A stretch of DNA of 64,000 nt from Eledone cirrhosa. Lineage: Eukaryota. This document shows positions 11,286 through 55,930 of this stretch, one piece after another. Made by a program: the position numbers and the translations under genes. Under the pieces are notes generated by a model. That model ran no database searches and was not told the DNA's origin. It saw only the letters and a program-made list of their open reading frames with translations. Every line of letters starts with the position of its first letter. Positions within the stretch are counted from its first letter, which is position 1. The DNA is taken from the NCBI GenBank assembly GCA_964016885.1, contig OZ024752.1, positions 48,298,001 to 48,362,000 of the forward strand, in the 5' to 3' direction.

Positions 11286-11530
11286 TGAATGAAGTAATTC
11301 CATCGGAAAAGTCCAGGAAAAAAGAGTGCTCTATGTAGGCAACAGAGCTTAATTATTATTATTATGTAATAAACAACATAAGGCAATTATTCCATTTACC
11401 AGTGGTTTCTTAAAAGCAAAAGGTTTTGCTTTCAATCCTCAGAATGAAAAAATCCTGGTTTGTTTATTGAATTTGGATTTTAAAATCCAAATGGAATAAT
11501 TGCCTTATGTTGTTTATTACATAATAATAA
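11285..11530 (-). mobile_element. Fold-back island with minimal HHR-like motif in the spacer
   Basis: Inverted arms ~11356-11397 / 11489-11530; minus strand 11414-11442 reads CTGAGGA-TT-GAAA-GCAAAA-cc-TTTTGC-TT; flanked by (TA)n. Confidence 0.5.
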
Positions 11531-12339: not shown

Positions 12340-12679
12340 CATCATCATCATCTCATTTTAACGTCCGCTTTTCCCTGCTTGCAAGGGTGGGACGGGAACT
12401 GATTCTGGCTTGATTTCTACAGCTGGATGCCCTTCCTAACACCAACCTCATTTACAGTGAGTGCTGGGTGCTTTTTTTCCGTGGCACCTGCACGACCACT
12501 TTGCAGTGGAATGATAGGGACCCCAGTCCCTATCATCTCATTTCTACAGCTGAGTAAACTGGAGCAACGTGAAATAAAGTGTCTTGCTCAAGGAAACAAC
12601 ACATCACCCGGTCTGAGAATTGAACTCACAACCTTTCGATTGCAAGCCCAATGCTCTAACCACTAAGCCATGTGCCTTC
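12338..12679 (-). mobile_element. SINE family A, full length
   Basis: Reverse complement of 2061-2397 at high identity. Confidence 0.9.
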
Positions 12680-13928: not shown

Positions 13929-14051
13929 CGGAAAAAATGAAACGAAATTTCATTTCTCACTCTTAGTACGGTTGTTACTTAAATATATATATATATATAT
14001 GTATATATATATGTGTGTGTGTGTATGTGTGTGTGTGTCTGTGTGTGTGCA

Positions 14052-14089
<38 letters not shown>

Positions 14090-14262
14090 AGTAACAGCCA
14101 TACTAAGAGTGAGAAATGAAATTTCGTTTCACTTTCCTGATGATTTCTAAAGAATGAAACAGTTCTAGTCCTGTAGAATCTCATCTATATTAAAACTTTT
14201 ATACTCTGCTATGTATTGAGTACCTTACTTACTGTGGTTACCTCCGATTCAACCCGGAATAA
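13929..14262 (+). mobile_element. Fold-back island (arms 13929-13981 / 14088-14137) continuing into family F1 with HHR-like core
   Basis: ggaaaaaatgaaacgaaatttcatttctcactcttagta is inverted as tactaagagtgagaaatgaaatttcgtttcactttcc; followed by CTGATGAtttctaaagaatGAAAC; arm shared with 55371-55405. Confidence 0.6.
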
Positions 14263-14451: not shown

Positions 14452-14516
14452 TATTTCATTATACATATTTCAAGGACACCAAGTTAAATTATGGTGTGCT
14501 TTCATCAGATAAAATA
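14452..14516 (-). ncRNA. Type I hammerhead ribozyme motif (left arm of inverted repeat)
   Basis: Reverse complement: TATTTTAT-CTGATGA-AAGCACACCA..TGGTGTCCTT-GAAA-TATGTA-TA-ATGAAATA. Confidence 0.7.
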
Positions 14517-54628: not shown

Positions 54629-54704
<76 letters not shown>

Positions 54705-54716
54705 AATATATATATA

Positions 54717-54748
<32 letters not shown>

Positions 54749-54759
54749 CATATATATAC

Positions 54760-54829
<70 letters not shown>

Positions 54830-54907
54830 GCATATAAATATATATACACATACATAAATATATATATACATATATAAATCTATATATACATATATATAAA
54901 TATAAAC

Positions 54908-54933
<26 letters not shown>

Positions 54934-54938
<5 letters not shown>

Positions 54939-55881
54939 AGTATGCATGTATACGTACATACATATATGTATACAGACGTACAGTAGCATGCACATATATA
55001 TATATATATATACATATATATATACATATGCATACAGGTACACATACATATATGCACGTATCAGTTTAGCGGCGCTAACGTCGCTTTGTTCGTTTGTAAA
55101 CAAACTGAACTGCCTGAATTTATGCCAGTGTTGAACAAAAAGGTGACGTGGTTGCCTTAACACCGTATGGCATAAATTCAGGCTGTTCAGTTTGTTTACA
55201 AACGAACAAAGCGACGTTAGCGCCGCTAAACTGATACGTGCATATATGTATGTGTACCTGTATGCATATGTATATATATATGTATATATATATATATATG
55301 TGCATGCTACTGTACGTCTGTATACATATATGTATGTACGTATACATGCATACTTACATTTAAGTAAGTGCCATACTAAGAGTGAGAAATGAAATTTCGT
55401 TTTCATTTTGTTTCAATTTATCGTTTTCGGTATGCCTGACCGATTTAACTCACTCAATATGCAAATTAGGCTGCTCAGCCGTTAATTTTCATAAGGAAAG
55501 TATATACTTTCGAACGTTCAACTATCTGGCAGATGGGTAAACGGTGCTGATGATAGCTAACAAGCTTGAAACTAGTACATCGTTCCTGTGTCAGTGTTGA
55601 ACAAAAAGGTGACGTGGTTGCCTTAACACCGTATGGCATAAATTCAGGCTGTTCAGTTTGTTTACAAACGAACAAAGCGACGTTAGCGCCGCTAAACTGA
55701 TACGTGCATATATGTATGTGTACCTGTATGCATATGTATATATATATGTATATATATATATATATGTGCATGCTACTGTACGTCTGTATACATATATGTA
55801 TGTACGTATACATGCATACTTACATTTAAGTAAGTGCCATACTAAGAGTGAGAAATGAAATTTCGTTTTCATTTTGTTTCA

Positions 55882-55887
<6 letters not shown>
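54934..55887 (+). mobile_element. Retrozyme/Penelope pseudo-LTR-like element: inverted arm + 466-bp monomer + 296-bp direct repeat
   Basis: 54934-55127 is the reverse complement of 55168-55359; 55126-55421 repeats at 55592-55887 (offset 466); HHR at 55540-55584; (TA)n on both sides. Confidence 0.8.
55540..55584 (+). ncRNA. Type I hammerhead ribozyme with palindromic stem III
   Basis: AACGGTG-CTGATGA-TAGCT-aaca-AGCTT-GAAA-CTAG-TA-CATCGTT; 7-bp stem I (one GU), ACTAGT palindrome, predicted cleavage after 55577 (GUA). Confidence 0.82.

Positions 55888-55930
<43 letters not shown>

Follow-up and report, generated by a model that had tools for sequence, protein, structure and literature searches.

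A young, non-coding, hammerhead-bearing retrozyme of Eledone cirrhosa, very likely copied into (TA)n sites by a Penelope-like enzyme

Organization of the element

The window analysed here is a stretch of 64,000 nucleotides from contig C12 of a 3.0-Gb assembly, and near its right-hand end it holds a compact repeat element in which a short inverted arm is followed by a direct arm of somewhat more than one and a half units. Units are numbered u1-u466, corresponding to 55422-55887, because copies of the repeat end at a fixed 3' end at 55887. The features are as follows.

54640..54933, no strand: (TA)n-rich left flank, the target microsatellite, read from the sequence
54934..55127, minus strand: inverted arm (u213-u404), its outer end being the short fixed 3' end, without the tail, against (TA)n
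55126..55127, no strand: head-to-head joint at which the arms overlap by 2 nt (2-nt microhomology)
55126..55421, plus strand: 5'-truncated unit of the direct arm (u171-u466), an exact copy of 55592-55887
55422..55887, plus strand: one complete 466-nt unit (u1-u466) without coding capacity; a TA-rich tract lies inside it at about 55704-55821
55540..55584, plus strand: type I hammerhead motif (stem II closed by U.U, stem III palindromic), with cleavage predicted after 55577
55817..55836, plus strand: stem-loop predicted by folding, holding the short fixed end (u398-u411); it folds in the sister subfamily too
55826..55887, plus strand: tail of about 62 nt up to the long fixed 3' end, on one arm only (822 junctions; asymmetry of the arms)
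55888..55927, no strand: (TA)n right flank, read from the sequence

The partial tandem recognized in the initial annotation is exact over 296 nt at a period of 466; that period stands, and the register changes, the natural unit being 55422-55887 and the partial copy the one upstream of it rather than downstream. The inverted copy, put earlier at about 193 bp, measures 194 nt and is 98% identical to the direct arm, from which it differs by one substitution and one extra TA. CpG dinucleotides are retained as had been noted (observed/expected 1.26 in the element, 0.39 for the window), the GC content is 36% and thus below 50%, and (TA)n lies on both sides, at the place where the target-site duplication of a retrozyme, longer than 4 bp if there is one, would be sought. 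No credible open reading frame was found in the element, the longest open frames (81-114 aa) running through the TA-rich tract. An ORF with reverse transcriptase (RT) and GIY-YIG domains, which would place it among the autonomous Penelope-like elements, is absent. The window copy also has one ribozyme, not the two by which a copy is called active in a recent preprint (Li et al. 2026, 10.64898/2026.07.22.740005), and release of a monomer by two cuts is therefore impossible from that copy.

The hammerhead motif and RNA structure

The motif at 55540-55584, described earlier as a well-formed type I hammerhead, is complete when read from the sequence: a 7-bp stem I (AACGGTG/CATCGTT), the CUGAUGA and GAAA core segments, a stem II of 3 bp with a closing U.U mismatch, and a palindromic ACTAGT stem III. 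Positions within it are numbered by the conventional hammerhead scheme. The active fold is, on the other hand, not predicted to dominate, the minimum-energy fold of the isolated 45-mer being a different structure (-9.5 kcal/mol). Rfam models detected no hammerhead in the element at gathering score, and the match to HH9 was sub-threshold (18.5 bits, E 0.15, gathering 52). The axolotl hammerhead HHR_Amex2 shares this basal U.U mismatch of stem II (Cervera and de la Pena 2020, PMC7229834), and of nine predicted Xenopus retrozyme dimers one was cleaved in vitro (Li et al. 2026).

Comparison with a sister subfamily, whose extent is given below, suggests selection on RNA structure, although the independent events are few. 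One pair of stem I is G.U, U.G or A-U depending on the subfamily, which implies a double change, and a hairpin at u251-278 is retained despite sequence turnover. Differences in the core are confined to loop II and the free position N7, a constancy to be read with the caveat that the pattern used to search for the sister subfamily fixed the core by design. Covariation among related sequences was seen at one pair, with 3/500 and 5/500 shuffles, figures that do not amount to a probability. Variants in the ribozyme are not depleted in young copies (0.0027 vs 0.0025 per base), as expected for neutral change after insertion. A z-score of -8.7 for the circular fold was set aside, since it owes its size to the self-complementary TA tract.

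The octamer ATGCAAAT (55459-55466), situated about 90 nt 5' of the ribozyme core, is kept in the sister subfamily and could be part of an internal promoter of the snRNA type; with five octamers in the window, chance may have placed it there. Newt satellite 2 reportedly has a promoter of this type. A literature search on snRNA-type promoters for the octamer found nothing relevant.

Family size and subfamilies

Genome copies were counted by exact sequence patterns. A 40-nt hammerhead pattern gave 10,122 exact matches, its reversed control none, and the hammerhead of the sister subfamily gave 10,046. The sister unit is about 430 nt long and shares 368 identical positions with the 466-nt unit over 474 aligned columns. 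At the level of the family, then, short tandem units each bear a type I hammerhead, with neither coding capacity nor long terminal repeats (LTRs). The window unit is identical to all 11 units of an insertion on another chromosome (L067), in agreement with the earlier view that the element is young, and the possibility of an assembly artefact can be dismissed because the architecture recurs at about 100 loci. Among four coded organisms the stretch was covered by X2 and X6, by X1 for a short part only and by X5 not at all; the contigs of the four coded runs held only variants that match the sister subfamily.

Anatomy of the insertions

The main sample comprised the first 100 of 822 exact junctions between the long end and (TA)n, all of them on contig C1 and of the youngest variant only. 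Three loci were cut by the fetch boundary, leaving 97 complete loci, among which an inverted arm was called by script in 79; four of these calls were dropped as artefacts of the self-complementary TA tract. Head-to-head twin arms, that is, an inverted 5'-truncated copy adjoining the 5' end as in Penelope-like insertions, are thus present in 75/97 loci, and the sampled loci also show the partial tandem with 5' truncation that is typical of such insertions. The copies have two fixed 3' ends about 62 nt apart, at u404 and u466, and scattered 5' ends. Genome-wide, the long end abuts (TA)n in the 822 exact junctions and one variant of the short end does so in 425. The initial annotation had looked to circularly permuted start and end points as a sign of a circular RNA; only the 5' ends vary, and as fixed 3' ends with variable 5' ends are the signature of Penelope-like insertions, the predicted permutation is not supported.

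The tail is confined to one end of each pair. Of the 75 inverted arms, three were cut by the fetch boundary and one was unreadable, and in all 71 that could be read the outer end is short (u398-411) and never u466. In a further set of 34 insertions picked by their hammerheads, and so without bias towards either end, and scored by eye, two of which overlap with the first set, 17/17 readable pairs combine one short and one long end. This strict one-tail rule suggests that a single complex holds both start sites. Where the two arms meet, microhomology of 1-8 nt is present in 49 of 54 clean joints, compared with 46% by simulation (p 7e-12); the remaining joints have gaps (13) or are ambiguous within the TA tract (8). 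The arms extend up to 15 units with a smooth decay, the counts by length being 78, 31, 21, 17, 5, 4, 4, 0, 2, 0 and 1, then 1 at 14 full units. The lengths of twin arms are uncorrelated (rho 0.04, n 67), and their 5' ends fall within 20, 40 and 60 nt of one another in 6, 11 and 19 cases, against 6.9, 13.0 and 19.2 in shuffles, and we therefore reject an origin of the inverted arm by fold-back of the first arm.

Non-autonomy and candidate helpers

That the family lacks an RT/GIY-YIG ORF of its own, as had been proposed, is borne out in every case sampled: no ORF is attached to the unit in any of 100 insertions, and 252 of 253 unit starts in these loci are preceded by another unit, the exception being an inversion joint. 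Matches to Penelope-like element (PLE) proteins occur neither in the unit nor within 500 nt upstream of 22 single-arm insertions, and nine pieces of PLE protein, compared by tblastn with 201 sequences, revealed no kinship or attachment to the unit. Fifty GIY-YIG loci (L111-L160), taken from 150 scored out of 10,595 candidates, include none with a terminal repeat common to the unit, and the unit matches within them are separately inserted copies only. The ORF matches nearest to a unit on the same strand, at L056 and L095, proved to be separate insertions in (TA)n of other elements; this base-level check took in these two loci and left out L004, L016, L031 and L063.

The same genome does contain uninterrupted frames with RT, CX4CxxC and GIY-YIG motifs, at L141:4309-7122 (minus strand, 938 aa) and L143:1775-5062 (plus strand, 1096 aa). 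By their linker motif, which is also that of Nematis, such ORFs would be of the Neptune type, and the two frames are candidates for helper assays. In the Atlas cluster to which the candidate helper belongs, Mollusca is the phylum recorded most often, four members having a record. Insertions of these ORF-bearing elements have the same two ends against (TA)n, and an inverted pair among them (L146) has one long and one short end. The tail of about 62 nt in the 466-nt family compares with 30-40 nt in the literature and with about 65 nt in the resident Neptune-type family A, and one family with an RT-GIY-YIG ORF has a hammerhead whose stem II is closed by U.U and whose stem III is palindromic. As a separate observation, made by eye in the 3' regions of L142, L146, L149, L150 and L152, family A itself seems to have a variant hammerhead in which the core reads UUGAAAA in place of CUGANGA, with U3-A8 replacing C3-G8 and a palindromic ACCGGT stem III.

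Interpretation and rival explanations

Our working hypothesis, which we hold to be very likely, is that the element is a young insertion of a non-coding, hammerhead-bearing non-LTR retrozyme, copied into (TA)n sites in trans by a Penelope-like enzyme, most likely of the Neptune type. The part assigned to a Penelope-like element rests on the twin arms, the single tail, the two fixed 3' ends, the microhomology at the joints and the (TA)n targets, as in the resident ORF-bearing elements. Partial tandems, an inverted truncated copy, a tail at one end and a bias to microsatellites have been described for Penelope-like insertions (Craig et al. 2021, PMC8557442), and a Penelope-like protein studied in vitro was shown to cut AT-rich DNA on both strands and to extend both, starting at two sites inside the RNA that delimit the tail and using mainly uncut RNA as substrate (Frangieh et al. 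2024, PMC11167929). By analogy, the GIY-YIG nuclease of the helper would cut both strands of a (TA)n tract, and both DNA ends would then prime reverse transcription at two internal RNA sites, u404 and u466; the stem-loop at 55817..55836 is likely to mark one of these internal starts, as in the system studied by Frangieh et al. (2024). Each cDNA would extend independently over 0.1 to 15 units, and the two cDNA ends would be joined through 1-8 complementary bases to leave an inverted arm and a tandem arm. For some of the events the multi-unit template may be a circle made by ribozyme cutting and ligation, for which we see about an even chance, and otherwise an uncut or partly cut multi-unit transcript.

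Two readings would dispense with a separately mobilized retrozyme. The repeat might be no more than a terminal repeat (pLTR) belonging to an ordinary autonomous Penelope-like element, the copies being its 5'-truncated insertions; the architecture is indeed that of ordinary Penelope-like insertions (Craig et al. 2021, fig. 2 legend), and thousands of copies could hide a rare full-length parent. Yet arms that pass the unit start enter another unit and never an ORF, with the inversion joint already mentioned as the sole exception, arms reach 15 units, and the sister subfamily also consists of ORF-less tandems of about 430 nt, so that we regard this explanation as very improbable. We give still less credence to a satellite or minisatellite spread by DNA-level processes such as unequal exchange or extrachromosomal DNA circles, with the ribozyme motif incidental. 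Higher-order repeats in long old arrays on C4 and C14 speak for such processes, but they leave unexplained the two fixed ends, the one tail per twin insertion and the targeting of (TA)n, as well as the same anatomy in ORF-bearing Penelope-like elements; the random end points to be expected were looked for and not found.

A more difficult choice concerns the RNA template. The initial annotation took the presence of more than one monomer as the product of reverse transcription around a circle; this is not sustained, since partial tandems are known from autonomous Penelope-like elements as well and, within this family, some arrays have expanded at the DNA level, as at L201, L203, L204 and L209, and the multi-unit state is by itself no evidence for a circle. 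From the sequences we consider a circular RNA template for the multi-unit arms plausible, at about even chances. The specific model in which a ribozyme-made RNA circle is loaded by a dimer of a Penelope-like RT-nuclease at sites 62 nt apart, both (TA)n break ends rolling round the same circle, we put forward tentatively, as a serious possibility that falls short of an even chance. If it were true, each twin-armed insertion would be a genomic print of rolling-circle reverse transcription, and the family would attest directly that animal retrozymes transpose with their circles as template and would show how Penelope-like elements regenerate tandem and inverted repeats. With the same element and the same helper, the template might instead always be a linear, uncut or partly cut multi-unit transcript, the arrays growing and homogenizing at the DNA level and long arms deriving from long parent arrays, with no circle; this we judge to come a little short of evenly balanced. 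Consistent with it, three of four array-fixed point variants that were tested genome-wide belong to small subfamilies with other homogeneous arrays, which are possible parents; for this reason the seven apparently private variants in the 100-locus sample were set aside as unreliable. Further points in its favour are the higher-order DNA repeats of the old arrays, a period-2 block in one arm only of L201, mixed units common to both arms of L057 and L059, and the finding of uncut RNA as the main substrate in the in vitro system (Frangieh et al. 2024). Arm 5' ends are also enriched just after the cut site, with 23 stops in 297 passes at u157-190 against 58/1675 in six neighbouring bins (p 0.001), an excess of 2.3-fold that persists on later passes (14/183 vs 29/1029, p 0.003). 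Such an excess would fit cut linear ends or a pause at the folded ribozyme; the bin was, however, picked after the first 60 loci (18 vs 6), and the second 40 gave 5 vs 2.

Several observations sit less easily with an exclusively linear template. The variant 188G>T is present in all five pieces, in both arms, of L081, and no other adjacent run of 188T occurs in 61 genome-wide matches. A 7-nt deletion, found in all five units of L087 and nowhere else, can be placed so as to end exactly at the predicted cut site; being in one arm, it may owe its spread to expansion at the DNA level. Each of many successive subfamilies is homogeneous, which calls for repeated single-unit bottlenecks, and the decay of arm lengths up to 15 units is smooth. 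Another deletion, of 6 nt, likewise abuts the cut site and one of 11 nt does not, and in L180 two types of unit alternate and agree with L165 once units are counted from the cut site, a single and weak case. End-to-end jumping between cut monomers was considered and is disfavoured, since deletion matches within the 14 nt that precede the cut site number only 23 (a control window has 7), compared with over 10,000 copies that are intact.

Relation to known systems

In all the sequence features tested, the 466-nt family fits the definition of a non-LTR retrozyme, as the initial annotation had proposed: tandem units with type I hammerheads, no ORF or LTR, and a GC content of 36%. Metazoan non-LTR retrozymes, described from coral, mussel and axolotl (Cervera and de la Pena 2020) and in the preprint of Li et al. 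(2026), have in common with it tandem arrays of short units that code for no protein and bear a single type I hammerhead apiece, a GC content below 50%, the lack of LTRs, thousands of copies and co-existing Penelope-like elements. The unit of 466 nt is slightly above the 150-450 nt given by Cervera and de la Pena (2020) and within the 51-972 nt of the preprint. In contrast to those retrozymes, the present family is known from its sequence, and hammerhead activity and a circular RNA are predictions. The class is already known and its link to Penelope-like elements was proposed in both of these sources, from shared ribozymes, co-occurrence and pLTR homology, whereas for the 466-nt family the link comes from the anatomy of the insertions, with their twin arms, single tail and fixed starts; no helper with a homologous pLTR was found in the 50 GIY-YIG loci. 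The open-access literature searched held no description of such a family from octopuses or any other cephalopod; as this search did not extend to Repbase, Dfam or subscription journals, the family may already be catalogued.

The family is not an autonomous Penelope-like element, yet it works like Penelope-like insertions. Among non-autonomous relatives, the Chlamys elements such as MRC1 also form head-to-tail copies, but they have a green algal host, belong to a clade reported as mostly without canonical hammerheads, and usually resemble their autonomous family at the 3' end, a kinship not found for the 466-nt unit in the 50 GIY-YIG loci (Craig et al. 2021). The Neptune-type elements and Poseidon PAc of Anolis are closer: they share the partial tandem, the inverted 5'-truncated copy, the tail at one end and the AT-rich target, and also a hammerhead in the terminal repeat and two internal start sites near a stem-loop (Frangieh et al. 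2024). The 466-nt family differs from them in lacking an ORF, in its tail of about 62 nt and in the far greater number of tandem units in each arm.

What moves animal retrozymes, and whether circular RNA is the template, are stated as open by Cervera and de la Pena (2020) and Li et al. (2026), and Craig et al. (2021) set as the next task to explain how tandem and inverted insertions arise from Penelope-like elements. The present family offers thousands of insertions that are very young, short and completely assembled, in which the one-tail rule is strict and the twin arms are independent, in a genome that also holds long-ORF Neptune-type elements, and both questions can therefore be put to a direct test, by genomics and with the in vitro assay already published.

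Other hammerhead-bearing sequences

Elsewhere in the window, two decayed and oppositely oriented tail fragments of the sister subfamily (13934-14135, 78-83% identical to the unit) abut a truncated hammerhead of another family. Eight more loose matches to the hammerhead core, from other families, lie at 92, 14137 and 14664 (plus strand) and at 11442, 14508, 52478, 18330 and 2690 (minus strand); several look like complete type I motifs, and those at 14508 and 14664 form a head-to-head inverted pair like the element at 54934-55887. Many more hammerhead families were seen in the genome loci fetched. Older subfamilies occur as long, satellite-like arrays at L203 (G000:C4:212913000-212922999) and at L204 and L209 (C14, 25.07 and 25.37 Mb), with higher-order repeats of about 6 and 10-11 units. 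A partial tRNA-like match at 12613-12670 (minus strand), at Rfam gathering score (31.2 bits), is probably the head of a SINE.
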